Source of the DNA: a virus
Lineage: Duplodnaviria; Caudoviricetes
DNA length: 64,000 nucleotides
IMG/VR virus record: IMGVR_UViG_3300037512_001279
Span: 1 to 64,000 of that record
Reading direction: 5' to 3' (one strand)
A program made the position numbers and the translations under genes. The notes below the pieces were generated by a model. It did no database searches and had not been told where the DNA came from. It was given only the letters and a program-made list of their open reading frames with translations. Positions 4,616 through 64,000 of this stretch are shown here, piece by piece; position 1 is the first letter of the stretch, and each line of letters opens with the position of its first letter.

Positions 4616-4687
4616 CGCGAGATAGTGAAAATGGAATAATATGAGTCTCATACGCTCAAGTTCTGGATTCGAGTTCCAGTCTCGCTA
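4616..4687 (+). tRNA. tRNA with CAT anticodon (Met or Ile2)
   Basis: Acceptor CGCGAGA/TCTCGCT (C1:U72 mismatch), anticodon arm TGAGT-CTCATAC-GCTCA, T arm CTGGA-TTCGAGT-TCCAG; weak D stem. Confidence 0.75.
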
Positions 4688-4698
4688 TTCCATGGAGG

Positions 4699-4773
4699 GA
4701 CGACGTAGAGAAGCTCGGTCAATCTCGCCTGATTTGTTTCAGGAGATCGGCGGTTCAAATCCGCCCGTCGCTC
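4699..4773 (+). tRNA. tRNA-like gene with 6-nt anticodon loop (pseudo-tRNA, undetermined isotype)
   Basis: D arm GAGA/TCTC, anticodon arm CCTGA-TTTGTT-TCAGG, T arm GGCGG-TTCAAAT-CCGCC, acceptor GACGACG/CGTCGCT with one mismatch. Confidence 0.65.
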
Positions 4774-6327: not shown

Positions 6328-6942
6328 ATGGATGAGGATCAATCCTTACTGTTTTTAAACGGCAATAATAAATTTTATGACGATTTGATTTCGTTTAATT
6401 ACGAAACGAGACATTTAATTTTAAATCAGGACGTTACCTCAGACCTTATTGAGATGATTTGTTTATACATCTTCAGGTGGAATCTTGAAGACAAAGATAT
6501 TCCAAAAGATAAAAGGCGTAAGATTTATCTTTACGTAAACAGTGACGGTGGAGATACCGTCGCAGGAAACATGATCTTATCTGCAATTAAGCTTAGCGAG
6601 ACTCCTGTTATTACTGTAGGTCTTGCAAAATGCTCTTCCATGGCAAGTTACATTCTTGCTGCCGGACACAAGAGATATTGTTTCCCGAACACGATTGTAC
6701 TTTATCACGACGGAGAAAGTGGATTCTTTACCAGCAGCAATAAAGGGAAGGACATTCAGAAGTTCCACGAGAGTCTTGATGACATGATGACGAAGTTCAT
6801 GATTGAGAACACAAAAATGACTGCAGAATTTCTTGAAAAGATTAAAGACCGTGAATACTACATGTTTGCTGAAGAAGCAAAAGAACTTGGAATTGTTGAT
6901 TACATTGTCGGGGTTGACTGTAACCTTGATGAAATCTTGTAG
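6328..6942 (+). CDS. clpP: ClpP-like serine protease
   Basis: YVNSDGG, CSSMAS (catalytic Ser), YHDG (His), DREYY.AEEAKELGIVD. Confidence 0.9.
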   Translation: MDEDQSLLFLNGNNKFYDDLISFNYETRHLILNQDVTSDLIEMICLYIFRWNLEDKDIPKDKRRKIYLYVNSDGGDTVAGNMILSAIKLSETPVITVGLAKCSSMASYILAAGHKRYCFPNTIVLYHDGESGFFTSSNKGKDIQKFHESLDDMMTKFMIENTKMTAEFLEKIKDREYYMFAEEAKELGIVDYIVGVDCNLDEIL

Positions 6943-10215: not shown

Positions 10216-10558
10216 TTTGCATAACAGAACCTGCAACGCCTCTTAATAATGCGTACCACTGCAGGTCATTGAAATTTAGACCGATGATGCTTTAGGCATA
10301 TGGTGCAAAACCGCATCGGTCATTTGGTGTTCCGCCACCATAAGAGCGAGCCTTTAAACTACTGTTTGCCCATTACCATAAAAAGAAAATGGGCTTTACT
10401 TAGCTCATCTGCCATGTGTAGAAGGAGTATCGGAGTCGTCTTATTTAAGGCGCCTCTTGTTTTTTATAAGGAATTGCGGTGGATGTCTTCGGACTACACC
10501 TATAGGCTATCTGATGAGTCGGATAGCCTATTATATTGGAAATAAAGGAGGATTTGCC

Positions 10559-11563
10559 ATGGCTAACAGAGGTCGTGTATATAACCGCGTATTCACCGAA
10601 GATTTATGGCTTAAGGTGAATCCGGTAAATAAGGAAATTATGAATGATTTTTTGGACGAATACAGACAGAGAAAGAAATCTAAAGCAACAGTGTCTGCAT
10701 ATCAATCAGATCTTCAATTAATCTTTTGTATTATTGCGCAGAAGTTTGATAACAAGTCGGTACTTGAAATGACAAAACGCGATTTCAGATCGCTTAGTCT
10801 TATGTTTACTGACGAGTTTGGTCTTTCTCCTGCAAGAACAAATAGACTGAAAAGTTCAATCAATAGTATGCTCACGTTTTGTGAAGAGGAAGAAGACTAT
10901 GATTACGACATTAATTATGCTAAGAAGGTTAAAGGTATACCTAACGAGCGCGTAAAGGATGATGACGATGACTTTTTCTTTACGTTCGACGAGTTCATAA
11001 AGGTTCGTGATATATTGGTAGAGCAAGGTAGGTTGCAGCTTGCTGTTCTTTGGTCTGTTGGTTTTGATTCTGCAGGAAGACGCAATGAACTTCTACAGAT
11101 TGAAAAAACGGGGCTTCTTGACGGCAACAAGACAAACATTGTTGTTGGTAAACGCGGCAAGAAGTTCGCTCTTGTGTATTTAGATGACACAAAGGAATTG
11201 ATCAGAAAATATCTTGAGGAGCGTGGAGAAGATAATATCCCTTCTCTTTGGTATAAAACCGTAAATGGGCAGAAAATGCCGATCCAATCGGAGACAATTT
11301 ATGACCGCATAGTGTCAATTTCTAAAATACTGTCAGACGTTCGCGGTGAGGAATGTAATATATTCCCACATACAATGAGACACAGTAGACTTGAGTGTTT
11401 GGCTCAAGGGACTGACACAAGACTTACGGACAATGACGGGAATCCAAGAAAGTTCCCATTAGAGCAAATACAAGTGTTTGCGCATCATTCAGACGTAAGC
11501 ACTACTCAGGGATATTTAAAAGATCACTCAGAAGACACTATAAACGAAATGTTTGGCTTTTAG
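10559..11563 (+). CDS. tyrosine recombinase (XerC/YomM-like)
   Basis: GRRNE (R), GKRGK (K), HTMRH (HxxR), HHSD.STT.GY (H, Y); AAAGGAGG RBS before ATG 10559. Confidence 0.9.
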   Translation: MANRGRVYNRVFTEDLWLKVNPVNKEIMNDFLDEYRQRKKSKATVSAYQSDLQLIFCIIAQKFDNKSVLEMTKRDFRSLSLMFTDEFGLSPARTNRLKSSINSMLTFCEEEEDYDYDINYAKKVKGIPNERVKDDDDDFFFTFDEFIKVRDILVEQGRLQLAVLWSVGFDSAGRRNELLQIEKTGLLDGNKTNIVVGKRGKKFALVYLDDTKELIRKYLEERGEDNIPSLWYKTVNGQKMPIQSETIYDRIVSISKILSDVRGEECNIFPHTMRHSRLECLAQGTDTRLTDNDGNPRKFPLEQIQVFAHHSDVSTTQGYLKDHSEDTINEMFGF

Positions 11564-17545: not shown

Positions 17546-17616
17546 TGGGATATAGTTTAATGGTAGAACATGCGACTGTTAATCGCAGTATATGAGTTCA
17601 ATTCTCTTTGTCCCAG
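17546..17616 (+). tRNA. tRNA-Asn (GTT)
   Basis: Acceptor TGGGATA/TGTCCCA, anticodon arm TGCGA-CTGTTAA-TCGCA, T loop TTCAATT. Confidence 0.85.
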
Positions 17617-40489: not shown

Positions 40490-43400
40490 ATGGCTGGGAA
40501 TACTGTTAGTATAGGTTTTGACTACAGAAAACAATTAGAAAAAGCCTGTAAAGATATAGAGCAATCTTTTGATAAAGTAATATCTTCGAATGATTATGGC
40601 AAAGATTTTGAAAAACAGATAAAGAACTTTAAAACAATGATTGCCGACATGAAAGATGATCTTTCGGATTCTTTTAAAGCTTTGTCAGACGGGAAGTTAA
40701 GTACGGAAAAATTTGAATCCTTTAAAGAGAACGTTAATAAGAAACTTAAAAACATAAATGATAGAGTTTCAGATTTAACGACAAACATAGATCAATTAAA
40801 CAAGGCATTAGGTTTTACCGGAGATAGCGTTGATTTAACAAGTGCTATTAATCAATTTAAGGAGCTTCAAGAATATATAAATACAAACAATGAAGCCGTT
40901 GAAAGGTTATTAAAAACACTTCAAACAGTTGATGGAAATCTTGAAATAAATGTTCCAAAGTTTTCTATTGATGAGGCAAAAGCACAGATAAAGCTTCTAA
41001 AAGGAATGATTAATGATTTAATGCAGGGTTCAAAAGAAGATATTTCTAAAAAACTTGCATCAATGACATCTAGCCAAATAGAAGTACTTTATTATGATTT
41101 ATCAGATAAATTTTCTGAATTGCAAGAGAAAAAAGACGAATTATTAGGAAAGATAAATGCAGCGCCAGACCAAAAGGATGGCGCTGTTTTAGCATTTAGG
41201 TCTGAATTGTCGCAGGCAGAAATTGAGATATCTAAATTGGCAGAAGACATAGAGGAAATATTTCAGTATGCCGGAGAAAGAAAATTCAAGTGGTTTGATT
41301 CAACCAAAAACGATAAAACAACAGTAAAATTTAGAAATACAATTTTAGAAATTAATAACAGTTTTGATGAAATAGAGACTAAATCACAAAAAATAATTAC
41401 TGATTTGCAAAGATATGTTGATTCGTTTTCTAATACTACTGCTAAAGTATCAGACAAACTAGAGGCTAACACTGGCGAAGTAAATGTTCAAGTAAAAATA
41501 GCTACTAGAAATGCCACTCTTATAAATGAATTAAAAGATAAAATAGAAAAGTTGCAAGAAGCATTAAATAATAAACCTCTAATTTTACCTGTAAAAATGG
41601 TTGTATCAAATGCCAGAACTACAAGCGAAGACCCATTAAAAACTAGCAAAGATGCAATAAATAAGGCAAGGAAGAAATTAAAAGAATCAACTGAAGATGT
41701 AGATATGGCAGATGCAATTCCAAAGCAGACATTGAAACAGGCTCTTATTAATGCTGAACGTGCTGCGAAGGAATCGTTTACTAGAATCCAAGAAATCTTT
41801 GATAAAACTCCTATCAACATTCATTTAACTGTTCCAGAGGAAGAAATACAGAAAATATCTGATTCTGTGTTTAGTGAAGACGGTAAAACTAAAATTGACA
41901 TTTCAAAACAAATAGATAATGCAAAAAAGAGAACGGATGAATTAATAAAATCTCTTAAAGAGGCAGATGAGACTGCATCAAAAACATTAAAAAAGAATAA
42001 ATATGCAGGGCTTGCTGAAGAAATACAAAAAAGCTTATCAGGGCTTGAAAGTCTTAAAGACATTCTTACTGCTATTCGTGATTTAGAAAGCACTCTTGGC
42101 AGAGCTACAAATGTAGCGACGAATAGTGATATTACTACTCAATGGAATAAAGTAAAGTTTTGGTTTGATTATATTTCTGATGAATCTGACAATATTAACT
42201 TTAATAAGCAAAGAGATCAAATAAATACATTGATGTCTGAATATCAGAAATACCTAAAAATGGGTGGACAAAATCCTCTTAGAAATCTTACCGATAATGA
42301 AGAAACAATAAGAAAATTATATAATAGATTCAACAAATTAAAAGACGTATCAGGAGATAAAATTGATGTCTCCGGAGAAGTTAAATCATTCAATGAAATA
42401 ACGGGTGCGGTTGATGAGTTAACCGTTGCTATTGGTGAAAAGAAAGTAGATGCAATAAATCAAGAAGCTTTGGCAATGGAAAGTGCTGCAGAAAGAGAAG
42501 TCAAAGCAATAAAATCAATAGACGACGAAATATCAGCGGCTCATTCTTCAGGGAAAAAAAATAAGCAGGATAAAGAATTAAAGAAAGAAAATATCCAAAA
42601 CATAGATGAATCTTCTTCTAAAATTACAGAAGAGTCTTTTGCTCTAGATAAAACTGCTGAATCAGCTGCGAATGCTGCAGAAGCAAAAGACAAATTTAGA
42701 AAATCTAATGAACTTCTTGCTACGAGTGCAAAAGATTCTGCAGATGCGTTGGCTATTGAAACTAATGCCCTGCAAGTTATTGAGAATATTGATTTAGATC
42801 ATAATTCTGATGAATTTAGAAATGCAGCAGAAGCCGCAAGAATGTATTGTGACGGGCTTGGCGAAATAGCTTCTATTACAAGAACATCCGGAACATATAA
42901 TACATATAACAGAAATACAGGCGAAATGGAACAAATGCTAAGAACATCGTACAGAGTTACTGATGTTAATGGCAATAGTCGTACGTTTAATCCACAAGGC
43001 AATATAATTGGTGCTAAAGATATTATAAATGCTACTGCCGCATATAGAGAATACTTAAAGATACAAGAACAAGTTTTTGCGATTAATAAAAAAGAGGCAT
43101 CTGGACAAGAATTATTAAATAGAGAAATTTCAGATAGAGAAAGTTTACTTAGAAAGCTTTCAGAACAAGAGGAATTAATTAATTCAATTGAGTCTAGAGG
43201 CCTTGAAAATTCTGAACTTAGAGAAGAAGTTGAAAGGCGAAGAATCGCAAATCAAAGGACTATTCAACAAATACAAAAAAATAGTATCTTAAACGGGCCT
43301 CTTGAAGGTTACGAAAGACAATTCTCATCATTAAATACAGATAAAAATTTATCAAAACAAACCGACGAATATAGAAGCAGATTGTTAGAGATTAATGATT

Positions 43401-44377
43401 TACTTCAAAGATTACAGGCATATAGAGACATAGATATATTTACAGATGAAGACGTTAATGATGTTACAAATTTAAGAACGCAGATAGATGGTTTATTTAA
43501 TGACTTATCCAACATGGATAAGGCTGCGAATAAGGCAAAGTCTTCCAGCGTACTTTCAAACATTACCGACTTCATAGCAAAAAATAGCAGGTTAAATTTG
43601 TCAAAACAAGGTAAGGAATACCTTTCTCAACTTGAAGAGTTACAGGATAGACTAAGAAGGGTTGGTCTTACTTCTAATGACATTCAAGATGTTGTTGCTG
43701 AGTTTAACAGATTAAAAATACAAATTACAGAAGCAGGGCTGGCTGGAAGAAGCTTTTTTGACATTATGAAGTCAAAAGCTTTCTATATGGCTGCTGAATA
43801 TCTCGCAAGGTATTTTAGTTTGCAAGATATTATTCGCTATATTAAAACTGCTGCCCAAAATGTTATTAATCTTAATACTCAGTTTACTGAGCTTGCAAAA
43901 GTTTCAGATACAAGCATTAAAAAACTCAATGCAGACTTTAAAGCATACGCAGACACAGCAAAAGAACTTGGTAGTACAATCACCGACACAATTTCTGCAA
44001 CGGCAGACTGGGCTAGAATGGGATATAATATTCCTGATAGCAAAGAACTCGCCCGTGTTGCTTTGATTTATAAGAATGTTGGCGACGGTATTGATATAAG
44101 TGCTGCAAACGAATCACTGATTTCTACATTACAAGGTTTCCAAATGGAAGCAAAAGACGCGTTACATATAATTGACGTGTTCAACGAAACTTCGAACAAC
44201 TTCGCAATTAGTTCGGCTGGAATTGGTGAAGCGTTACAAAGAAGTGCAGCTTCGTTTAATGCTGCTCATACGAGTCTTGAAAAATCTGTATCACTTGTTA
44301 CAACAACAAATACTGTATTACAAGATCCACAAGTTGTCGGAAATTTGTGGAAGACCATGAGTGCTCGAATTCGCGGT
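40490..44377 (+). CDS. tape measure protein exon 1 (join 40490..44377,44783..45319,46875..52058; 3202 aa)
   Basis: Long coiled coil ending in TP901-type TMP core (..WARMG..NNFAIS..SARIRG). Confidence 0.85.
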
Positions 44378-44782
44378 AAATTTGTGCCGTTTTATAGCGA
44401 AAGCTATAATGTGTGTTTCGAGTAAAAAATAATTACACACATAGATAACTATATAAGTCAAAAGATGATGGGACATCAGAGACTTAGGAAAGACTTATGA
44501 TTTTTATATATTTTTTAATTGGATGAAGAAGCCTGATTATTTAGCACTACAATTATAAAATATAAAAATCATAAGTATCCCAAGAGACTGCAGGACGCAT
44601 GTGGTAACATATGTGTTGAAGTTATCCCACTCTCCTATTATAGGAAATGGTAATATACAGTCCGATCCTACAATATAATCCCAAATTAATAAAATGAAAT
44701 GTAGGAATTTGGTAGAAATACCAAATCGCCATATATTATGGTCATAAAACTATTTCTCTGTATAGTTTAAGTAACAGAATTG
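44378..44782 (+). mobile_element. group I intron A in TMP (ORF-less, 405 nt)
   Basis: P1 CGGT/GCCG (U-G), P10 TTTGT/GCAAA, P3 GATAACT/AGTTATC, P4 TAAGTC/GACTTA, P7 GACTG/CAGTC, terminal G 44782; splicing gives ARIRG-AKTELEE. Confidence 0.9.
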
Positions 44783-45319
44783 GCAAAAACAGAGCTTGAA
44801 GAATTAAATGAAGAAGAGGATGAATTTACTGAGTCTACTTCTAAATTAAGAAGCCTTGTAAAAGGCCTTACTGGATTTGATATCATGCAAGATGAAGATA
44901 CATTCAAAGATTTGTATGATATTATTATTGGCATTGGTAAAGAGTGGAAAAATTTAACAGACATAGAGCGTGCTAGTCTTGGAGAGGCATTGGCTGGAAA
45001 AAGAATGGCGAACGGTCTTTACGCAGTGCTTGATAATCTAGATACTCTAGAAAAGGCATATAAAACTGCATCTGAATCTGATGGTTCCGCAATGCGTGAA
45101 CAGGAAAGATATCAACAGTCAATTCAATATTCAATTGACAGAACAAAAGCTTCTATTGAAGAGCTGTCAAACTCTTTACTTAATTCTGATTTACTCAAAT
45201 TCCTAGTTGATGTTGCAAACGGATTTGTTAACATTACAAATGAAGTAGTAAAATTCTCCGGTCTTCTCGGAACTATCGGCATCGGTGCTGGAGCATTTGC
45301 CGGAATAAAAAATCTCGGT
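44783..45319 (+). CDS. tape measure protein exon 2
   Basis: AKTELEE..IGKEW..L...E.LAGKR TMP-core continuation; no RBS of its own. Confidence 0.85.
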
Positions 45320-45376
45320 AGGAGTAAAAAGTTTCTCCTCAATTCATTGATGATTTGAAAATTTTTCAAAAATCTC

Positions 45377-45405
45377 TTGCATTTTATATGTACAGAGAAT
45401 ATAAT
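45377..45405 (+). promoter_or_regulatory. sigmaA promoter of candidate antitoxin RNA
   Basis: TTGCAT-N17-TATAAT. Confidence 0.7.
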
Positions 45406-45411
45406 TATATA

Positions 45412-45512
45412 AAAAGAAGAGGTAGTACCGTAGGACAAACGGTTCACCACAGTTTATAGTTACTGTATCAAATTAGCAACCACATACCTTGGGGAAGGGC
45501 GGTTGCTTTTTT
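45412..45512 (+). ncRNA. candidate type I antitoxin sRNA (about 100 nt)
   Basis: Lies between a sigmaA promoter and an AGCAACC..GGTTGCT+T-run terminator, antisense to the 3' UTR of the small peptide gene. Confidence 0.55.
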
Positions 45513-45518
45513 GATGGT

Positions 45519-45611
45519 TTATTTTTTGAAATGATCTAAGTACAAGCCGTAGATTACAACAACCGTCTGAACAGTTGCTACGGCAAGTGCTAAGATAGCT
45601 ATTACCATCAT
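45519..45611 (-). CDS. candidate type I toxin, 30-aa TM peptide MMVIAILALAVATVQTVVVIYGLYLDHFKK
   Basis: Translated by hand (below ORF-track cut-off); hydrophobic helix with basic C-terminus; GAAGGGG RBS; overlapped by a leader ORF in another frame. Confidence 0.65.
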   Translation of the reverse strand: MMVIAILALAVATVQTVVVIYGLYLDHFKK

Positions 45612-45767
45612 AGTACTTTCGTACCCCTTCGTTCTTATTTGCCATAGGCATCACTCTCCTTTTATTAGCGAAAAGTATTCCTTTGGCAGTTCTTTGGTTA
45701 AAGAACAACCAAGCGACTGAAGGGTGAACCGCTTACCCGTTTTAGTACTATCCTCTTCTTGTGCATT

Positions 45768-45796
45768 ATAATACTTTAAAGCATTCAAATTGTCAA
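45768..45796 (-). promoter_or_regulatory. sigmaA promoter of toxin mRNA
   Basis: TTGACA-N17-TATTAT on minus strand. Confidence 0.7.
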
Positions 45797-46179
45797 TAAA
45801 AAATATGCCGAGGCTCACGTCGTTTTATCCAGTAATGGAATTTTTGTCGTGAGTGAGTGGATACGCTACCACAACATAAACACCCAATATGATCCTAATG
45901 GATGCGCATGAGCAAACATGCGCCTGGGAAATGACATAATCCATTACTACTCTCCCGCTTTGGGTTTGTGAAAATGTAATGGATGTCATGGTCAGCAGGG
46001 AAGCTTCTGTTTACAGGAGAACCCCCACAGTAATGATATGGGTGGTAATATTAGCCTGAAACGACTAACATTACAATAGACATTCGAAACTAACCGACAT
46101 GGCGGTAATTTGCAGGAGGAAGTACTCTCCTCTCCATGAATTGTTGGGGCAGATCGGACTGCCTGAGTATGTCCAAAGT

Positions 46180-46209
46180 AAAAGCAACCACATAACGCGG
46201 TTGCTTTTT
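46180..46209. terminator. bidirectional intrinsic terminator ending the antisense cargo genes
   Basis: AAAAGCAACC-ACATAACGC-GGTTGCTTTTT. Confidence 0.7.
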
Positions 46210-46238
46210 GAAATAAAATCAAAATTTTATTTGATAGG

Positions 46239-46538
46239 TTACATAAACTTAAACAAATATATAAAAAATACAATTATGCTTATAACAATCCATGATATTA
46301 AAAATTTCTTGAAAAATCTTATATTTTTATTTATAGTACGAAGATGTTGCGTGATTTCTTCTAATTGTTCGTAAGCATCAAACTCGTAACACTCTTCCAT
46401 TTCGACATTGCAGTCTTTGCAATAAGTATCAGGTTCATCAGATGGTAGGTTGGCATAATCATTACATTCAGGGCATTTATATCTCTTGTATTTAATCATA
46501 ATATTATCTCTCCTTATACTAAGTATAAATAATAACAA
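46239..46538 (-). CDS. zinc-ribbon protein with C-terminal TM helix (intron cargo); true start probably MIKYK near 46499
   Basis: CPEC..CKDC, C-terminal hydrophobic helix, AAGGAG RBS. Confidence 0.7.
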   Translation of the reverse strand: MLLFILSIRRDNIMIKYKRYKCPECNDYANLPSDEPDTYCKDCNVEMEECYEFDAYEQLEEITQHLRTINKNIRFFKKFLISWIVISIIVFFIYLFKFM

Positions 46539-46815
46539 GAATTATTCCGCAAATTAATTCTAAAATCGTTAAAACAAAAAAGAATTTCATCATTTTATAA
46601 ATGCCATGTACGTCTTTCTCTAAATTATATGTTTTTTCAGTTGTCTGAGTGTTGTTAATATTTTCAACAACAGCTTCCGTCGTTGCTTCTACCTCACCAA
46701 AATTCTCAAGAGATCCTCCACAAACACGACATATTGATGGAACTTTATCTTCTGGTGAGATTTTGTATTCTTTGCCGCATTTATAGCAAACATATTTTTT
46801 TATTATATCCCCCAA
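46519..46815 (-). CDS. zinc-ribbon protein with C-terminal TM helix (intron cargo)
   Basis: CYKC..CRVC, C-terminal hydrophobic helix, GGAGGTG RBS before TTG. Confidence 0.75.
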   Translation of the reverse strand: MGDIIKKYVCYKCGKEYKISPEDKVPSICRVCGGSLENFGEVEATTEAVVENINNTQTTEKTYNLEKDVHGIYKMMKFFFVLTILELICGIILVIIYT

Positions 46816-46837
46816 TTGACATCACCTCCATATTTTA

Positions 46838-46866
46838 AGTATATCAACCAACATGATATTAGTCAA
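46838..46866 (-). promoter_or_regulatory. sigmaA promoter for antisense cargo genes
   Basis: TTGACT-N17-TATACT with TG extension. Confidence 0.7.
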
Positions 46867-46874
46867 ATAGTTTG

Positions 46875-49800
46875 AAATTTTTAGGAACACTTCCACAACT
46901 TAAAACCGCAATATCTTCTATTAGTGGATTATCTACAGATTTATTAGCAAATGGAGCTGATGGTTACATAAATGCAGTTAAAGGAATGACTGCACAAAAC
47001 GCTCTTCTTGTATTGTCTTATAAGAATTTAAGCGCAGCAGAAAAGAAAGAGATTCTTATCAAGGCCGGTGTTATTTCTGCTGATCAAGAGTTAATTGGAG
47101 AAAATGCACTTTTAGCTAAGTCAAATATCTCATTATCCGGAACATTTGGTATTATTGCAAGGAAGGCTGCTATGTCTGCTGCAGCAATTTTATCCAATCC
47201 AATTACATGGCTAGTTGGTGCAGTAGCCGCAACTACAATTGCAATAAAGAAAATGAACGAAGCCGTAGAAGAAGGCAGAGATAAAGCACAGGAATTGGGT
47301 TCGGAATTTGCAGATATTTCGCAAGAGCTTGATTCTTATAAAGAAAAAATAACTGAATTAACAGACAAAATAAAAGACCAGAAATCTTCAATCGAAACCG
47401 TGGTTGATTCAAGAAGACAGCTTGGTAAAATTCAGGATGAGCTTGTAAATAAATACGGTCATGAAGCAGAAGTAATTAATGCTGTTACAGATGCTATTAA
47501 TGGTCAGTCAGATGCAATAAATAATCTGTTTAATACAGTGTCTGCAGATGAGTGGCAAAAGGTAATGAACCAAATTAATAACACTGGTTTTTGGGCAAAT
47601 GCGGCGAACTGGCGTGACAACTACAAAGATCAGGTTGATCGTATAGAGCATGAATTATTTAATGAAACATATTCATTAACCGCTGCTGATAGCAGAATAT
47701 CTGTAGAACAAAGAAAATATTTTAAGAGCCTGCTTACTGAAAGGGGATGGACATATAATGAAGATAATATGTTCATGCAGTACACCGGAAGTAGAGAAAA
47801 AGCATTAAATGATATTCTTGATATTCAACAGGAGTTATCAAAGAAATTTGGCGATGATTTATCAAAAGTTCTATCTAAGACATTAACAGATTCATATAAC
47901 AGCATTAATGAAGTCTACGAAAAGTATAAAGAATTCAAAGATCAGTTTGTATTAAATTCTGTAATATTTAATCCACAGTACATGTTACAAAATGGTGAAG
48001 CAAACGGAGATTACCTTGCAAATGTATTATTAGGTTTAGAGGAAGAATACGAAGCATATATTTCGGCAGCAAACGAAGATGCTCAAAAGGCTGCCCTGCA
48101 AGGTCTTGCAAATCACCTAAGAGAGATTTTCAGCGAAGAAAATATTCCACAACTTGTTAAGGATTACATTAAACAATTATTCCCAACAATTTTTACAGAA
48201 GAAGATACAAAAATCACTCAAATAGAAAACGCAAAAAATCTTGCTAGAAATAAGGCATACGACAGTTTATATGCTGAAGCTTCTGGCTCTATGAATCGTA
48301 CTGATCAAGAAAAATTCAGAGAAGCTACTGGATTTGACAAAAAATACAATGCATTCATAGAAGAATATAAGATTGACTCCGAAGAAGAACTTGAACTTCT
48401 TGATGCATATATTGCAAAATATAAAGATCTTGATAAGGCATTTAGCCGGTATGCACAGGATGTAAAAACAGAATCACCTGTTCTTGATTACGAAGGCAAA
48501 AAAGACAGATCTAATTATACCGCCGACGATTACATAGAAGAAACAAAGTCTAACATCATTTCTCTTGGTGACGCTCTTAATAAACTTCAGACTAAAACAA
48601 TGACGTCTGCAGACAGAATGGCATTGTTTAAAGATTTTCCTGAGTTAGAATCAAGAGCAAACGACCTTGAAGAAGCGATTGGCGAAAAACTCGTCGGAGC
48701 AATTGATACATTAGAAAAGACAACCGGTAAGCAGTTAGCGCCTGAAATTAGACAGGGACTATTTGAACTTACTAGCGGCGCACTTCAAGCAAACAGAACT
48801 CTTAATGAAACGTTTAATACAATTAAAAACAGTTCAAGTGTTCTTAAGGAATTTAAGACAACTCTTAAGAATGGCGATCCAATTACTGAATCACTACTCT
48901 CTTCCATCGCAGGATTAAGTGACGAACTTGACACCTTAGTCGCAGGATTCTATGGCGGCGTTGTAACAGTTGAAGAGCTTTATGATGCCGTTGAAAAACA
49001 GCGTGAAGTTGATTTTGAGCGTTACAAGCAGTCTTACATAATGAAGCAGGCGCTCGATGAGAATTACTATAAAAATGCCATTGCGGGGCATAAAGAAGTA
49101 GTAAAACTGTTTAATGAACAGTATAAGATAGACCTTAGAAATTATACAAGCTATCAGATGGCGAAGTCTGAAGTTCAAAAGAAGATTCTTGGTCAGAATA
49201 TGAAGATGATATCTTTATATTATGACATTGAACAGATGCAATATACGGATGCCTATGCTAAACTTGAGAATGAAGCAAAGGCTTCTGTTGGACATTCTTA
49301 TGGCGAATATACAAAAGTTCGTTCTCTAATAAACGAATATAAACAAGCCATTGATGACCTTAATCAAATCGGCTGGACTGACTTCTTGGATGAACTTGAC
49401 AAGATGACTCTTGGCGATTTTGACAAGATTTCGGGTTCTACTAAGGATTATAAGGAACTCTTCGACTTCTTTGAGCGTCGTCTCGAAATTATTGATCAAT
49501 CGCTTAATAAGCTCGACGCATCACTTGAAGAAGTAAACGGCTCCATGGCAAAGAACATTCTTATTGCCGGTAAGATGAACATCGTGTCGAAACAGATTCA
49601 GGACTACACTTCTGCCCTCACGATGTACGAAAATAAGGCAAATCAGGAGCTGTCAAAACTCTCTGCAGACATGCAGGAAAAGATTAAGAACGGCTCTGTA
49701 AGCATTACTCAGCTTATTGGCGAGAATGGCGAAGAAGTTAACAAGACACTCGAGGAATACAAGAAGTGGGCAGACAAAGTAAACGACTGCAACGTTAAAC

Positions 49801-52058
49801 TTCTTGAGCTGCGTGAAACTCTGCGTGACCTCGCGCTTGAGAAATTCAACAACATTGCACAGGATTACTCCGACCAGTTTGACATTCTTGGTTCATCTAA
49901 CGACCTAATTGAAAAACAGATTTCATTGTTTGAAGAGGCAGGTCAGTTAATCGGTCGTGCGTTTTATGAAACTCAAATCGAGGCATCTCAGAAACAACGC
50001 ACAATTCTTGAGAAAGAAAAAGCCGCGCTTATTAAAGAGATGACGTCGGCGCTCTCTTCCGGTTACATTCAGAAGGGCAATGATGAATGGCTCGAAATGG
50101 CGAAGAGCATACAGGAAGTTGATTCCAGTATTCTCGACGTTGACCAATCCATAGAACAGCTTCAGAACTCCTTACTCGAACTCAACGACAAAGTATTTGA
50201 ACGCCTGCAGAATACGTTCTCAGACATCAATTCTCAGCTTTCCAACATTGTTGGAATGATCAGTGACGTTGACGTATCTGACGAATCTGGCGTATGGTCT
50301 GATGAAGGTCTTACTCAGTTAGGCGCATATGCACAGCAGTATGAGCTTGCGAGACACAACGTTGAGAAATATGAGGAAGAGATTCAGAAGCTCAATCAGT
50401 CCTACAGCGACGGTTTGTACTCTACTACGGAATACATTGACAAGCTCTCCGATCTTGCTCAGGCACAATGGGAGCAGGCCAATGCTGCAGAAGATGCAAA
50501 GAAGTCCATACTTGAACTTAACAAGGCAAGGGTTGAACTCGTAAAAGAAGGAATTCAAAAGCAGATTGACGCTTACAAGGAACTTATTGATAAGCAGAAA
50601 GAGGCTCTTGACCAGGAGAAATCCATCCGCGATTACGAGAAGACCATTGCAGAAAAGAATAAAAACATCAACAAACTGCAGAATCAGATTAACCTGTTAA
50701 GGAATGATGATTCTGCCGCGGCAAACGCTAAGAGAATTAAGCTTGAACAGGAGCTTGCTGATGCCAAGGCTGACCTTGAGGAAACTCAGTATGATCATTC
50801 AGTAGAGGCACAGAAGGAAGCCCTTGACAAGCAACTTGAAGATTTTGAAGATGCAAGGCAACAGGAAATTGATGAGTTAGAGGAATACCTGAAAGACGTC
50901 GAAAGGGTTCAGAAGGATTCGTTTGAAATCATCAAAAAGAATACCGACAAGATTGCAAAGCAAATCGAGAACATTGCCAAGACTCACGGCGTTGTTATTT
51001 CTGAAGCGATCACTAATTCTTGGAAGTCAGGTGAAGGGGCAATCGCCTCTTACGGTACTGCACTCTCATCTGCTTCCAGTGGATTTATTCAGCAGATCCA
51101 CGAGATTGAAATATATCTCGTCGCACTTCAGGATGAAGCTGACCTAACCGCAGACAGACTTGTTGGAATGTTGTCGGCTAAGGCTGATAACCTTCTTAAT
51201 GAATTTAATGCTGCAAGAGATTCCGAGAATGAACTTATCAGGGCAACCAATCTTCTTAATGAAGCATTGATTAAGACTCTTGAGGGTAATTATGACATTA
51301 GCGGAATTATTGGTGCGTTAAAGGAAGTTCAAAATCAGGTTGACGAAACCAAAAATAAGTTAACTGGTTCAACAAGCACAGGCAACGTTTCAAGTTCTAC
51401 TCAAAAAGCAATTCAGGATACCGTTTCTGCCGTTGCAAACGCAGGAGTCAAGGTTATTCCTGACGAACAAGTTAATGCAATAAAGAAACAGCAGGAACTT
51501 GATGCTCTCTCGTTTGATTATTACTATTACTGGAAACCAAAGACTCATGAGTATACGGCAGAGTATAAGAAACTTTCAGATGCCGTAAGATCTGGAGACA
51601 GTCAGGCTGCAATAGTTAAGAATAAGGTTGACAATGCCGTAGCAAGTTATCTTGCGAAGGAAGCTGCGATACTCAAGAAGTATGAAGGATTTGCCACCGG
51701 CGTACACAACCTTAACAGAACTCAGTTCGCATGGACTCAGGAGCAGGGTAACGAACTTGTGCTCTCTCCTACCAGAAATGCGATTCTTACCAAGCTAAAC
51801 AAGGGTGACACCGTACTTACTAAGGATCAGACAGACAACTTGTTTAAGTTAAGCAAGATTGATCCTGATTCCATCTTTGGTAAATTCGGCAAGATCAACG
51901 GAGTTGCAAGAGTTGAAGCTCCCGTACTTAGCATTGGAAACGTTCTTACCGTTAATGGAAACATTGACGACACGAATGCAGAAAAGATGAAGACCATTGC
52001 AATGTCTGCAATCAACACGGCCTTCAAGAAGTTCTCTAGTGAAATCGTTAAAAGATAA
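46875..52058 (+). CDS. tape measure protein exon 3
   Basis: NPITW.. hydrophobic segment then long coiled coil ending FATG..AW.QE.G.E; no RBS upstream. Confidence 0.85.
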   Translation, partial: KFLGTLPQLKTAISSISGLSTDLLANGADGYINAVKGMTAQNALLVLSYKNLSAAEKKEILIKAGVISADQELIGENALLAKSNISLSGTFGIIARKAAMSAAAILSNPITWLVGAVAATTIAIKKMNEAVEEGRDKAQELGSEFADISQELDSYKEKITELTDKIKDQKSSIETVVDSRRQLGKIQDELVNKYGHEAEVINAVTDAINGQSDAINNLFNTVSADEWQKVMNQINNTGFWANAANWRDNYKDQVDRIEHELFNETYSLTAADSRISVEQRKYFKSLLTERGWTYNEDNMFMQYTGSREKALNDILDIQQELSKKFGDDLSKVLSKTLTDSYNSINEVYEKYKEFKDQFVLNSVIFNPQYMLQNGEANGDYLANVLLGLEEEYEAYISAANEDAQKAALQGLANHLREIFSEENIPQLVKDYIKQLFPTIFTEEDTKITQIENAKNLARNKAYDSLYAEASGSMNRTDQEKFREATGFDKKYNAFIEEYKIDSEEELELLDAYIAKYKDLDKAFSRYAQDVKTESPVLDYEGKKDRSNYTADDYIEETKSNIISLGDALNKLQTKTMTSADRMALFKDFPELESRANDLEEAIGEKLVGAIDTLEKTTGKQLAPEIRQGLFELTSGALQANRTLNETFNTIKNSSSVLKEFKTTLKNGDPITESLLSSIAGLSDELDTLVAGFYGGVVTVEELYDAVEKQREVDFERYKQSYIMKQALDENYYKNAIAGHKEVVKLFNEQYKIDLRNYTSYQMAKSEVQKKILGQNMKMISLYYDIEQMQYTDAYAKLENEAKASVGHSYGEYTKVRSLINEYKQAIDDLNQIGWTDFLDELDKMTLGDFDKISGSTKDYKELFDFFERRLEIIDQSLNKLDASLEEVNGSMAKNILIAGKMNIVSKQIQDYTSALTMYENKANQELSKLSADMQEKIKNGSVSITQLIGENGEEVNKTLEEYKKWADKVNDCNVKLLELRETLRDLALEKFNNIAQDYSDQFDILGSSNDLIEKQISLFEEAGQLIGRAFYETQIEASQKQRTILEKEKAALIKEMTSALSSGYIQKGNDEWLEMAKSIQEVDSSILDVDQSIEQLQNSLLELNDKVFERLQNTFSDINSQLSNIVGMISDVDVSDESGVWSDEGLTQLGAYAQQYELARHNVEKYEEEIQKLNQSYSDGLYSTTEYIDKLSDLAQAQWEQANAAEDAKKSILELNKARVELVKEGIQKQIDAYKELIDKQKEALDQEKSIRDYEKTIAEKNKNINKLQNQINLLRNDDSAAANAKRIKLEQELADAKADLEETQYDHSVEAQKEALDKQLEDFEDARQQEIDELEEYLKDVERVQKDSFEIIKKNTDKIAKQIENIAKTHGVVISEAITNSWKSGEGAIASYGTALSSASSGFIQQIHEIEIYLVALQDEADLTADRLVGMLSAKADNLLNEFNAARDSENELIRATNLLNEALIKTLEGNYDISGIIGALKEVQNQVDETKNKLTGSTSTGNVSSSTQKAIQDTVSAVANAGVKVIPDEQVNAIKKQQELDALSFDYYYYWKPKTHEYTAEYKKLSDAVRSGDSQAAIVKNKVDNAVASYLAKEAAILKKYEGFATGVHNLNRTQFAWTQEQGNELVLSPTRNAILTKLNKGDTVLTKDQTDNLFKLSKIDPDSIFGKFGKINGVARVEAPVLSIGNVLTVNGNIDDTNAEKMKTIAMSAINTAFKKFSSEIVKR

Positions 52059-63030: not shown

Positions 63031-64000
63031 TTATGATGACAATGCTTTTTTGATTTGGGCTTGAGCCTCCTCAAAAGTCTTGTCAGAATAGTAGTAGTAA
63101 TCACGTGTGCAGTTAATATTCGTGTGTCCCATTTGTTTGATGATGAGTCTTTCGTCTACCCCGCCGTTAATAAGTTTCGTGGCATACGTTTTTCTGATTT
63201 TATGCATTGACCTTGGAGGTATTCCAAGTTTTTTACACAGTCTTAGAAGTCTCAACGTAAAACACCTGCTTAGGATTCTTTCTCCATTTTTCATAAACAT
63301 GTATTCACCGAATGGATTTTTCTTCCGTATTGTCGCAAGTATTTTTTTAGCCTCGTCATTTAATATGATCGTTCTGTTACCGGCTTCGGTCTTAGGAGAC
63401 TCTCTAACCTGGAATACGTAGCCACCATCTTTGTCCTTGAACCGTTCCTCTGTCTTTGTGATGCTCAACAAATCCCCAGTGACGTCGGAGTGCTTCAATG
63501 CAGAAAGTTCTCCTACTCTCAACCCTGTTTGAAAAACCAATAGAATTCCAAGGTCAATTAAGCTAGACCTCTTCCACAATTCGAACTCAACAGCATCGAT
63601 TTCTTCTTTTGTGAAAACCGAATCTTCATCTCGAATAACCTTTTTCTTAAAGGCTTTTCTTGACAGTTCGAGATAATCACCGAAGAAATCTTTTGCACTT
63701 ATGTCCGTGTATCCCCGTTTTTTGCCATACTTTAAAACGCCTATAATTAAGGTTCTTACACCATTGTAAGCCTTGTAAGACAGATTAAAGTCGGAAATTG
63801 TTTTCTTAATAAAGTCTTCAAGCTCTGACTCCGTCAGTCGTTGCAGTTCTACCTTGTCGAAACCAGTTTTTACAAAGTATCTTGTAAAGTCCGTCCTGTA
63901 ACGATCATATGTTTGTTTTTGTATTTCATTATATTCTAGTTTCCTGTCCACCCATTTGTCAAAAATTTCTCCAAACGTGTTCACCTGACTATGTTGGAAT
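63031..64000 (-). CDS. int: phage integrase (tyrosine recombinase), 5' end outside window
   Basis: TGLRVGEL, PKT, HKIRKT, MGH...T..YY; frame open to window edge. Confidence 0.9.
   Translation of the reverse strand, partial: FQHSQVNTFGEIFDKWVDRKLEYNEIQKQTYDRYRTDFTRYFVKTGFDKVELQRLTESELEDFIKKTISDFNLSYKAYNGVRTLIIGVLKYGKKRGYTDISAKDFFGDYLELSRKAFKKKVIRDEDSVFTKEEIDAVEFELWKRSSLIDLGILLVFQTGLRVGELSALKHSDVTGDLLSITKTEERFKDKDGGYVFQVRESPKTEAGNRTIILNDEAKKILATIRKKNPFGEYMFMKNGERILSRCFTLRLLRLCKKLGIPPRSMHKIRKTYATKLINGGVDERLIIKQMGHTNINCTRDYYYYSDKTFEEAQAQIKKALSS

Follow-up and report, generated by a model that had tools for sequence, protein, structure and literature searches.

The gene for the tape measure protein (TMP) in the Caudoviricetes record IMGVR_UViG_3300037512_001279 is interrupted twice, and the second interruption, at positions 45320-46874, is very probably a group I intron by structure and descent. 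We analyzed positions 1 to 64,000 of this record as one stretch of 64,000 nt, here called the window, to which the coordinates refer. The second interruption, termed intron 2, has a ribozyme core and splice-site pairings that are conserved at the same TMP codon in related phages, and it harbors accessory genes on both sides of the core. We consider it likely that intron 2 still splices in this phage. Judged from the sequence, it probably serves as a store of accessory genes within the TMP gene, located in the P9 region and here also in the P1 loop, that would be spliced out of late transcripts. An initial annotation of the window, made from the letters alone, had proposed such a cargo-carrying self-splicing intron.

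The interrupted tape measure gene

The TMP sequence was found to be spread over three plus-strand open reading frames (ORFs) (40490-44425, 44780-45358, and 46872-52058). At the end of the first ORF, the match to the Pfam profile PF10145 (PhageMin_Tail) breaks off at profile position 145 of 201. The related locus L002 (related loci carry L numbers throughout) has a single unbroken TMP ORF of 3971 aa, which shows 73% identity to exon 2 of the window. When the L002 protein was compared with the window by tblastn, the blocks of homology terminated precisely at 44377 and 45319. At the second break the similarity to L002 fades, and the conserved domain ends at the same point. The resulting division of the gene is as follows.

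40490..44377, + strand: TMP exon 1, 1296 codons, with the first three quarters of the PhageMin_Tail/TP901 core domain
44378..44782, + strand: intron 1, a group I intron of 405 nt without an ORF, which splits the TP901 core domain of TMP
44783..45319, + strand: TMP exon 2, 179 codons, ending in GIKNLG (CTCGGT, 45314-45319)
45320..46874, + strand: intron 2, the putative cargo-carrying group I intron, 1555 nt, with bounds taken from P1, P10, P9.0, the terminal G, and homology to relatives
46875..52058, + strand: TMP exon 3, 1727 codons plus stop, beginning with AAAUUUUUA (K F L)

All three exons are free of stop codons and frameshifts, and excision of 45320-46874 puts GIKNLG and KFLGTL in one frame, in agreement with the initial annotation. 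The predicted fully spliced TMP comprises 1296 + 179 + 1727 = 3202 residues. In a six-way alignment, the fused product GIKNLG|KFLGTLPQL (the bar marks the splice junction) was ordered like the contiguous relatives, with a variable linker followed by a hydrophobic segment and a coiled coil. The frame of exon 3 opens just 12 nt ahead of the junction, after a TAG at 46860-62, and neither a Shine-Dalgarno sequence nor an ATG was found near this opening. The absence of a ribosome-binding site (RBS) had already been noted in the initial annotation; the absence of an ATG adds to it.

The ORF containing exon 2 (192 aa) had 225 stand-alone homologues of 105-336 aa in a large protein collection; among the matches listed, most were 185-290 aa long, and many terminated a few codons past the KNxG motif. 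An alignment-based scan yielded about 90 loci from viral contigs and from metagenome-assembled genomes (MAGs) of Clostridia/Lachnospiraceae. In about two-thirds of these loci the frame stops no more than 60 codons past the end of exon 2, and in the rest, including L002, L003, and L023, it runs through.

Splice-site pairings and ribozyme core

The elements assigned to intron 2 outside its cargo, all on the plus strand, are listed below; the core helices could be placed in the canonical group I order.

45320..45339: P1 extension hairpin AGGAG...CUCCU, directly 3′ of the 5′ splice site
45340..45362: CAAUUCAUUGAUGAUUUGAAAAU, left over from the short ancestral P1 loop and directly followed by the guide in relatives
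45799..45812: internal guide, consisting of the P10 strand AAAAAUAU (45799-806) and the P1 strand GCCGAG (45807-812)
45813..46163: ribozyme core, aligned to relatives, with the parts given in the next seven lines
45813-54: P2, an arm capped by a GNRA loop; 45857-72: P2.1
45881-90 x 46036-44: P3
45892-923: two extra hairpins between P3 and P4
45933-89: P5/P5a/P5b, including the conserved ACUACUCUCC, preceded by P4 (CUG/CAG); 45998-46024: P6
46030-35 x 46081-85: P7, G(U)AAUG x CAUUC
46045-74: P8 with a conserved AUGMAACG loop; 46075-80: A-rich J8/7
46087-91: 5′ strand of P9.0, followed by P9 hairpins to 46163
46869..46874: 3′ strand of P9.0, AGUUU, and the terminal omega G 46874; 5/5 pairs with AAACU 46087-91

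The end of exon 2, CUCGGU, pairs with the guide sequence GCCGAG at six of six positions, including a U.G wobble. The initial annotation had placed this complement about 490 nt downstream; it lies at 45807-45812, 487 nt past the splice site, compared with a guide-to-splice-site distance of 22-56 nt in 18 relatives. P1 was complementary throughout in all 19 loci examined, with 10 exon/guide sequence types. Those of the relatives include AUCGGU/GCCGAU, GUCGGU/GCCGAC, UUCGGU/GCCGAA, GUUGGU/GCCAAC, AACGGU/GCCGUU, GAGGGU/GCCCUC, GUGGGU/GCCUAC, and AGCGGU/GCCGCU. The last exon base is U opposite G, except in three loci that have C opposite A, by which the wobble geometry is kept. Loci L046, L059, and L104 (5′ splice sites near 6537-6543) are natural cases in which a C.A pair replaces the U.G wobble at the 5′ splice site of a group I intron. 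The P1 extension hairpin also recurs in relatives with other stems, such as AGACC...GGUCU and AGGGA...UCCCU.

Just 5′ of the P1 guide, AAAAATAT (45799-45806) pairs at seven of eight positions with the first bases after G46874, exactly as the initial annotation had described for P10. As a nine-base strand, P10 covaries with the start of exon 3, reading AAAAAAUAU : AAAUUUUUA in the window and UUUGAAUAU : AUAUUCAAA in most relatives; the relatives pair at 7-9 of 9 positions, and in L019 the complement extends to 14 nt. The spliced junction KN[IV]G|IFK of L016 and L019 recreates the contiguous KNVGIFNNG of L002. P9.0 reads GUACU/AGUAC, GUACU/AGUAU, or AUACU/AGUAU in relatives, and the AAACU/AGUUU of the window amounts to two compensatory changes. 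The base preceding the 3′ junction was G in all splice solutions, a base that the search imposed; the AGUAYG motif around it is conserved. The covariation of the guide with both exon ends in 19 loci has no explanation absent a joining of the exons at the RNA level. The predicted splice junction of intron 2 is AATCTCGGT|AAATTTTTA, i.e., AATCTCGGT|AAATTTTTAGG.

A target-site duplication at the borders of intron 2 (SKKFL / SLKFL) was considered, but just 9 of 15 nt are identical. In the 17-sequence alignment A3 used below, RNAalifold also proposed an alternative pairing of the guide GCCGA with UCGG(U) of the conserved CUCGGUACU in the region of the P7 3′ strand and P9.0, which may represent a rival or regulatory fold or be due to chance.

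A hidden Markov model (HMM) of the core was built on the approximately 330 nt following the guide and includes the window's own sequence; in an nhmmer search with it the window scored 180 bits (E 1e-53), and the same core was found in 17 distinct loci. Unguided RNAalifold retrieved P2, P4-P8, and P7, and the core fold had a z-score of -3.9. Covariation was assessed in alignment A3 (77 pairs), with 500 column shuffles and with pairing partners slid by 1-3 columns as controls. Paired cells made up 87.5% in A3, 68.4% after shuffling (none of the 500 shuffles was as high), and 30-44% after sliding. Double-sided changes occurred in 56 of the 77 core pairs, and the covariation score was 0.519 compared with at most 0.106 in the slid controls.

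P7 was 100% paired in the alignment, with four Watson-Crick types: GAAUG/CAUUC in the window, GAGCG/CGCUC, GAGUG/CACUC, and GACUG/CAGUC. It contains an invariant bulged U between invariant G-C and A-U pairs and is closed by another invariant G-C. L025, L033, L068, L092, and L034 share both extra hairpins located between P3 and P4, with stems that differ yet are complementary. The pairings listed in the initial annotation (P3, P7, P8, and P9.0) could thus all be placed, and their covariation across relatives exceeds chance. Of the helices whose covariation it had singled out as decisive, P1 and P7 covary, and P3 is well supported solely in the six-member subgroup that contains the window (68.6% overall). 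The window-specific compensatory changes in P1, P7, and P9.0 imply selection for pairing in the lineage of the window.

Three other assignments within intron 2 were discarded. UUAGUC at 46859-64 is not the 3′ strand of P7, since the true strand is CAUUC at 46081-46085 and the helix before the 3′ splice site is P9.0. Likewise, GAUAUUAGUC near the 3′ end is not an S element or P7 strand, because covariation puts P7 and J8/7 at 46075-46085; the TTGACT is accounted for as a -35 box. A minus-strand toxin mRNA in 45820-46180, suggested by a 39-54-aa ORF with a Shine-Dalgarno sequence, was rejected because this region aligns column for column with the core of the relatives.

The same core recurs at the same codon (KNxG|) in 17 or more distinct contigs of phages or prophages, within insertions of about 1.4-5.8 kb. 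In loci L016, L018, and L019 the gene is organized alike: one insert separates TMP part 1 from exon 2, and another, 1.9-3.6 kb long and with genes that differ between the loci, separates exon 2 from TMP part 3. At the nucleotide level, intron 2 had no meaningful match among 50,697 phage records (megablast, blastn), and its DNA gave short AT-rich matches only in the genomes of five relatives. Searches for related loci that used the N-terminal portion of exon 3 or one of the zinc-ribbon proteins described below as queries retrieved none.

A second, unrelated intron family lies a few codons away, at KKLG|LF, in L020 (6541-7622), L030 (6550-7641), L021, and L045, with lengths of 1.1-3.7 kb. Its P1 pairs CUGGGU or CUGAGU with GCUCAG, and its P10 pairs at 8-9 of 9 positions; for this neighboring family the strands read AUUAAGUAG : CUAUUUAAU and UCCAAAUAG : CUGUUUGGA. 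It too has an antisense zinc-ribbon ORF beside the 3′ splice site, together with GmrSD-like or PemK cargo.

Cargo of intron 2 and of related introns

Intron 2 carries one cargo unit in the P1 loop and another in the P9 region, the layout that the initial annotation had given. Since the remnant CAAUUCAUUGAUGAUUUGAAAAU adjoins the guide in relatives (their counterpart reads CAAAUCAUUGUUAUUGUUUUGAAUAU|GCCGAC), the approximately 435 nt up to AAAAAUAU-GCCGAG represent an insertion into the P1 loop. The cargo features, predicted by ORF listing, promoter scan, and folding, are as follows.

45363..45798, both strands: type I toxin-antitoxin (TA)-like cassette in the P1 loop
45377-45405, + strand: promoter-like site of the putative small RNA of the cassette, TTGCAT-17-TATAAT
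45475-45512, both strands: shared bidirectional hairpin terminator
45519-45611, - strand: hydrophobic ORF of 30 aa with a basic C-terminus and a leader of about 150 nt, ending just short of the hairpin
45796-45768, - strand: promoter of the toxin-like ORF, TTGACA-17-TATTAT, 11/12, the best promoter match in the region
46180..46209, both strands: hairpin terminator closing the zinc-ribbon operon, -12.9 kcal/mol (+) and -17.1 kcal/mol (-)
46239..46538, - strand: cargo gene 2, 99 aa, CxxC...CxxC zinc ribbon and C-terminal hydrophobic segment
46519..46815, - strand: cargo gene 1, 98 aa, zinc ribbon and C-terminal transmembrane segment, RBS GGAGGTG
46866-46838, - strand: promoter of cargo gene 1, TTGACT-17-(TG)TATACT, 10/12 plus TG, among the best two sigma-70-like sites in the region

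The P1-loop cassette resembles a type I TA locus by its architecture alone; it had no Pfam or Rfam family match and is unique to this phage among the 19 loci. Cargo genes 1 and 2 overlap and are drawn as one antisense operon in the P9 region. Both proteins gave weak zinc-ribbon-type Pfam matches only and fell into no PADLOC or PHROG family, and their look-alikes in the Atlas were uninformative. The hairpins at 45475-45512 and 46180-46209 are near-identical (AGCAACCACATA...GCGGTTGCTTTTT; repeats D11 and D13), which points to a common origin of the two cargo units or to a duplication. Promoters for the cargo had been claimed in the initial annotation, and the best two sigma-70-like sites do lie upstream of the toxin-like ORF and of the zinc-ribbon genes. 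Its statement that no endonuclease is encoded also held, as no homing-endonuclease family (LAGLIDADG, GIY-YIG, HNH, His-Cys, or PD-(D/E)xK) was detected with Pfam in the ORFs of intron 2. No transposase was found among the ORFs of the window and about 50 ORFs of relatives, the only hits being sub-threshold ribbon matches of the Zn-ribbon_IS1595 type.

In the relatives, the cargo lies between the P9 hairpins and the 3′ strand of P9.0 with the omega G, and its content differs by locus. The comparison proposed in the initial annotation, whether related phages carry this scaffold with other cargo, thus gave a positive outcome, and the same core at the same TMP codon in the 17 or more loci supports a group I intron with cargo other than an endonuclease. 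The cargo identified in related loci was as follows.

L052: PemK/MazF (E 4.5e-20)
L019: ToxN/AbiQ (E 1.9e-32)
L068 (8365-9030): complete type III TA system, with ToxN (E 2.7e-42) after a perfect ToxI/antiQ-type tandem repeat (34 nt x 2.4)
L066 (7507-11082): complete Menshen system NsnA, NsnB, and NsnC (PADLOC 3.5e-121, 1.2e-112, and 4.1e-37) and a partial AbiEii; the 3′ splice site is less certain here than in the other loci
L021 and L045 (loci of the KKLG|LF family): GmrSD_N/NsnA-like proteins
Other relatives: helix-turn-helix regulators, DUF2513, and zinc-ribbon proteins

Pfam searches of the relatives' introns likewise revealed no homing-endonuclease families. An antisense zinc-ribbon ORF adjoins the 3′ splice site in most family members examined. 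The encoded protein of the relatives has 120-200 aa, with an N-terminal zinc ribbon and the C-terminal pattern CPxCGSxxxKKISG..GLFGLxS..GKxxxCxxCGYKW (alignments A2 and A4). Its AlphaFold model had a pLDDT of 69.7, and Foldseek against the PDB and a PDB profile search returned generic zinc-ribbon matches and no nuclease-like fold. The zinc-ribbon genes of the window occupy the same position and orientation but lack this C-terminal domain. The protein of the relatives may be connected with intron biology.

The variety of the cargo bears on the question of whether the site is used for the benefit of the phage. Intron 2 might splice and yet carry nothing but selfish addiction elements or passengers of a neutral site, the safe harbor being a by-product that was not selected. 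We regard this as rather unlikely, although TA modules are classic addiction elements, the highly variable cargo includes fragments such as the partial AbiEii of L066, and the window's own cargo matches no defense family. That relatives carry complete anti-phage systems (AbiQ/ToxN together with its repeat RNA, and Menshen NsnABC) matches the pattern of prophage defense hotspots, and the retention of the antisense zinc-ribbon gene beside the 3′ splice site is a second argument against mere passengers.

Proposed function, alternatives, and known elements

According to our model, the entire 1.55 kb would be removed during late transcription by guanosine-initiated splicing, with the guide (45799-45812) aligning both exons and P9.0 carrying G46874 to the active site. 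Intron 1 would also be excised, and the 1296-, 179-, and 1727-codon pieces would be translated as one TMP of 3202 aa. Each cargo unit would be transcribed in the prophage state from a sigma-A-type promoter of its own. An essential late gene could thereby house accessory genes, those of relatives being for defense or addiction, and be left unbroken. A further and tentative proposal, possible though short of being favored, is that the family forms a dedicated platform. P9, and in the window the P1 loop as well, would then be a recombination hotspot at which prophages collect and exchange defense, abortive-infection, and addiction modules, and the antisense zinc-ribbon protein would be a new intron-associated factor acting in mobility, retention, or exclusion.

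Several observations weigh against an active cargo-carrying intron. Rfam RF00028 gave no hit at E<=10 with lax filters (44000-47500 and 45790-46240), and the whole window gave none at the gathering threshold; the group I model search recommended in the initial annotation thus failed to recover the intron. This negative result carries little weight because intron 1 was missed too (44360-44800, no Rfam group I/II match at E<=10) and the compact intron of L004 scores merely 22.5 bits with RF00028. The model also cannot span cargo insertions of 487 nt and 700 nt. P4 has just three clear pairs in the window. Promoter-like sites were not more numerous in the region (14) than in shuffled sequences (12.0 +/- 3.3). 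The sense strand of the intron contains two good terminator hairpins, one of -14.6 kcal/mol with a trailing U6 and one of -12.9 kcal/mol with a trailing U5, and late transcription would therefore need read-through or antitermination. In addition, the 487-nt P1 loop might slow or prevent the formation of P1, and convergent antisense transcription of the cargo could interfere with the TMP transcript.

These points are the main grounds for the alternative that intron 2, though a group I intron by descent, is no longer active in this phage, the TA cassette or the sense-strand terminators having abolished splicing or read-through and left a broken TMP and a defective prophage. The P1 loop is far longer than in the 18 relatives measured, strong counterparts of the two terminators were missing from both relatives scanned (a single weak site in L052, nothing in L016), P10 pairs at only seven of eight positions, and the record is an incomplete metagenomic contig (80%). 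We nevertheless consider this alternative improbable. All core helices are intact, P1, P7, and P9.0 show window-specific compensatory changes, the three TMP exons have remained free of stops and frameshifts, and to the right of the cassette a P10 strand still adjoins the guide. Other group I introns also have large inserts in the P1 loop, e.g., the I-PpoI ORF of Physarum PpLSU3.

That no splicing occurs at all, with TMP made as separate polypeptides, the 1.55 kb forming an intergenic moron island, and exon 3 started from TTG 46872 or a downstream start, can practically be dismissed: the frame does stop soon past KNxG in many relatives, and such pieces appear as individual genes in gene calls and GenBank annotations, but exon 3 has no RBS and a frame that opens only 12 nt upstream, contiguous alleles exist in L002 and others, and the guide covaries with both exon ends in 19 loci.

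An intron that stores accessory genes and is spliced from late transcripts would depart from the usual view of phage self-splicing introns as selfish elements carrying at most their own homing nuclease. The initial annotation knew of no description of such an arrangement. This stands for the cargo, as the full-text literature searched contained no report of TA, defense, or moron cargo in a phage group I intron, nor of a TMP intron as a site for accessory genes; it does not stand for the components, as both cargo-bearing group I introns (IStrons and organellar introns) and TMP introns are known. Group I introns can hold other genes, and IStrons are group I introns of Firmicutes with a 3′ insertion sequence (IS) element, several kb in length and spliced as one unit (PMC4227781). 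Like intron 2, the IStrons CdISt1 of Clostridioides difficile and BcISt1 of Bacillus cereus (Tourasse et al. 2014, PMC4227781) have a 5′ ribozyme, protein-coding cargo on the kb scale before the 3′ splice site, and no homing endonuclease. Splicing of the whole unit, which renders the insertion harmless to the host gene, is a feature of IStrons themselves. They differ in that their cargo is an IS200/IS605- or IS607-type transposon that moves to many unrelated genes, whereas the family described here sits at one fixed TMP codon and carries TA, defense, and membrane-protein cargo, often antisense and with its own promoters. Within this family, the window stands out by its additional cargo site in the P1 loop and by its clean lineage-specific compensatory changes.

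The closest precedent by location comes from prophages of the Bacillus cereus group, whose TMP genes contain the group I introns TMP-IVS1, TMP-IVS2, TMP-IVS3a, and TMP-IVS3b (Tourasse and Kolsto 2008, PMC2504315). These introns share with the window a Firmicute prophage TMP gene, several sites per gene, presence/absence polymorphism, and the lack, in most cases, of a complete homing endonuclease gene (HEG). In contrast, they are compact, occur with or without an HEG (GIY-YIG or another family), and have no accessory or defense cargo described (PMC2504315). The search of the phage collection revealed no similarity between them and intron 2. Phage introns that carry an HEG (T4 td/nrdB/sunY, SPO1, Twort, LittleE, and TR-TP1) also reside in essential phage genes and have an ORF in a peripheral loop. 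There is even an antisense precedent, as the endonuclease in the capsid intron of LittleE is transcribed leftward, antisense within the intron (PMC3706429). Their ORF, however, is an endonuclease that mobilizes the intron, and no nuclease family was detected in intron 2 or its relatives.

The cargo itself recalls the defense hotspots and morons of prophages and satellites (e.g., P2/P4), which have a fixed position, variable TA, abortive-infection, or defense cargo, conserved flanks, and their own promoters and terminators. Hotspots known so far are intergenic, whereas the site in the window lies inside an essential structural gene and would be tolerated by way of RNA splicing. Type I TA systems of Firmicutes (par/Fst, TxpA/RatA, and those of C. 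difficile prophages) have in common with the P1-loop cassette a hydrophobic peptide of about 30 aa with a basic C-terminus, a long 5′ untranslated region, and a convergent small RNA with a shared bidirectional terminator; the cassette differs in having no family-level match in Pfam or Rfam.

If these introns act as containers, a position in an essential and conserved structural gene is opened to accessory genes, including the anti-phage systems of relatives (AbiQ/ToxIN, MazF, and Menshen). They would constitute a new kind of defense hotspot, whose flanks are easily searched, and would account for many of the "fragmented" tape measure genes in gut viromes and GenBank records. Should the platform proposal be true, RNA splicing makes an essential late gene usable as a defense island. 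The arrangement would also be a natural design for inserting payloads into phage genomes with their genes undisturbed. It raises the questions of how a ribozyme folds around multi-kb inserts transcribed in antisense and how late transcription passes internal terminators.

Intron 1 lies upstream in the same gene. Its junction MSARIRG|AKTELEEL corresponds to L002 MSARIRGSKTELEEL, and 44378-44782 is therefore a clean insertion. By eye, P1 pairs GCGGU with GCCGU (44386-90) and P10 pairs UUUGU (44381-85) with GCAAA (44783-87), the terminal G being 44782. The fold has a z-score of -5.7 and includes GNRA-capped hairpins, and the predicted splice junction is CGCGGT|GCAAAAAC. The 3′ half of intron 1 shows 72% identity to the 3′ part of an HNH-carrying insert, the second one in TMP of the Thomasclavelia phage TR-TP1. 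In GenBank, the TMP of this phage (L007, PQ571309.1 22867-37036) is listed as gp27, gp29, and gp31 with "HNH endonuclease" genes in between, and these inserts probably represent introns with HEGs that escaped annotation. Near the site of intron 1, L004 and L005 contain another, compact intron that differs from it. A kinship of intron 2 with intron 1 or with the introns of TR-TP1, L004, and L005 was rejected, as blastn showed no similarity and they belong to different families.

The source record is an IMG/VR virus of 121,656 bp with a CheckV completeness of 80%, and the host phage of the introns is probably a temperate siphovirus of gut Clostridia with a genome of roughly 120-150 kb. Three genes of the tyrosine recombinase/integrase family were identified in it (G000 11060-11524, + strand; 63091-63546, - strand; and 95628-96119, - strand). 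Together with the occurrence of related loci in contigs of Clostridia/Lachnospiraceae MAGs, they are consistent with a temperate lifestyle. Elsewhere in the window, an abiF RNA motif (RF03085, 43.6 bits) and three tRNA genes were found (10230-10266; 4616-4773; 17546-17616).

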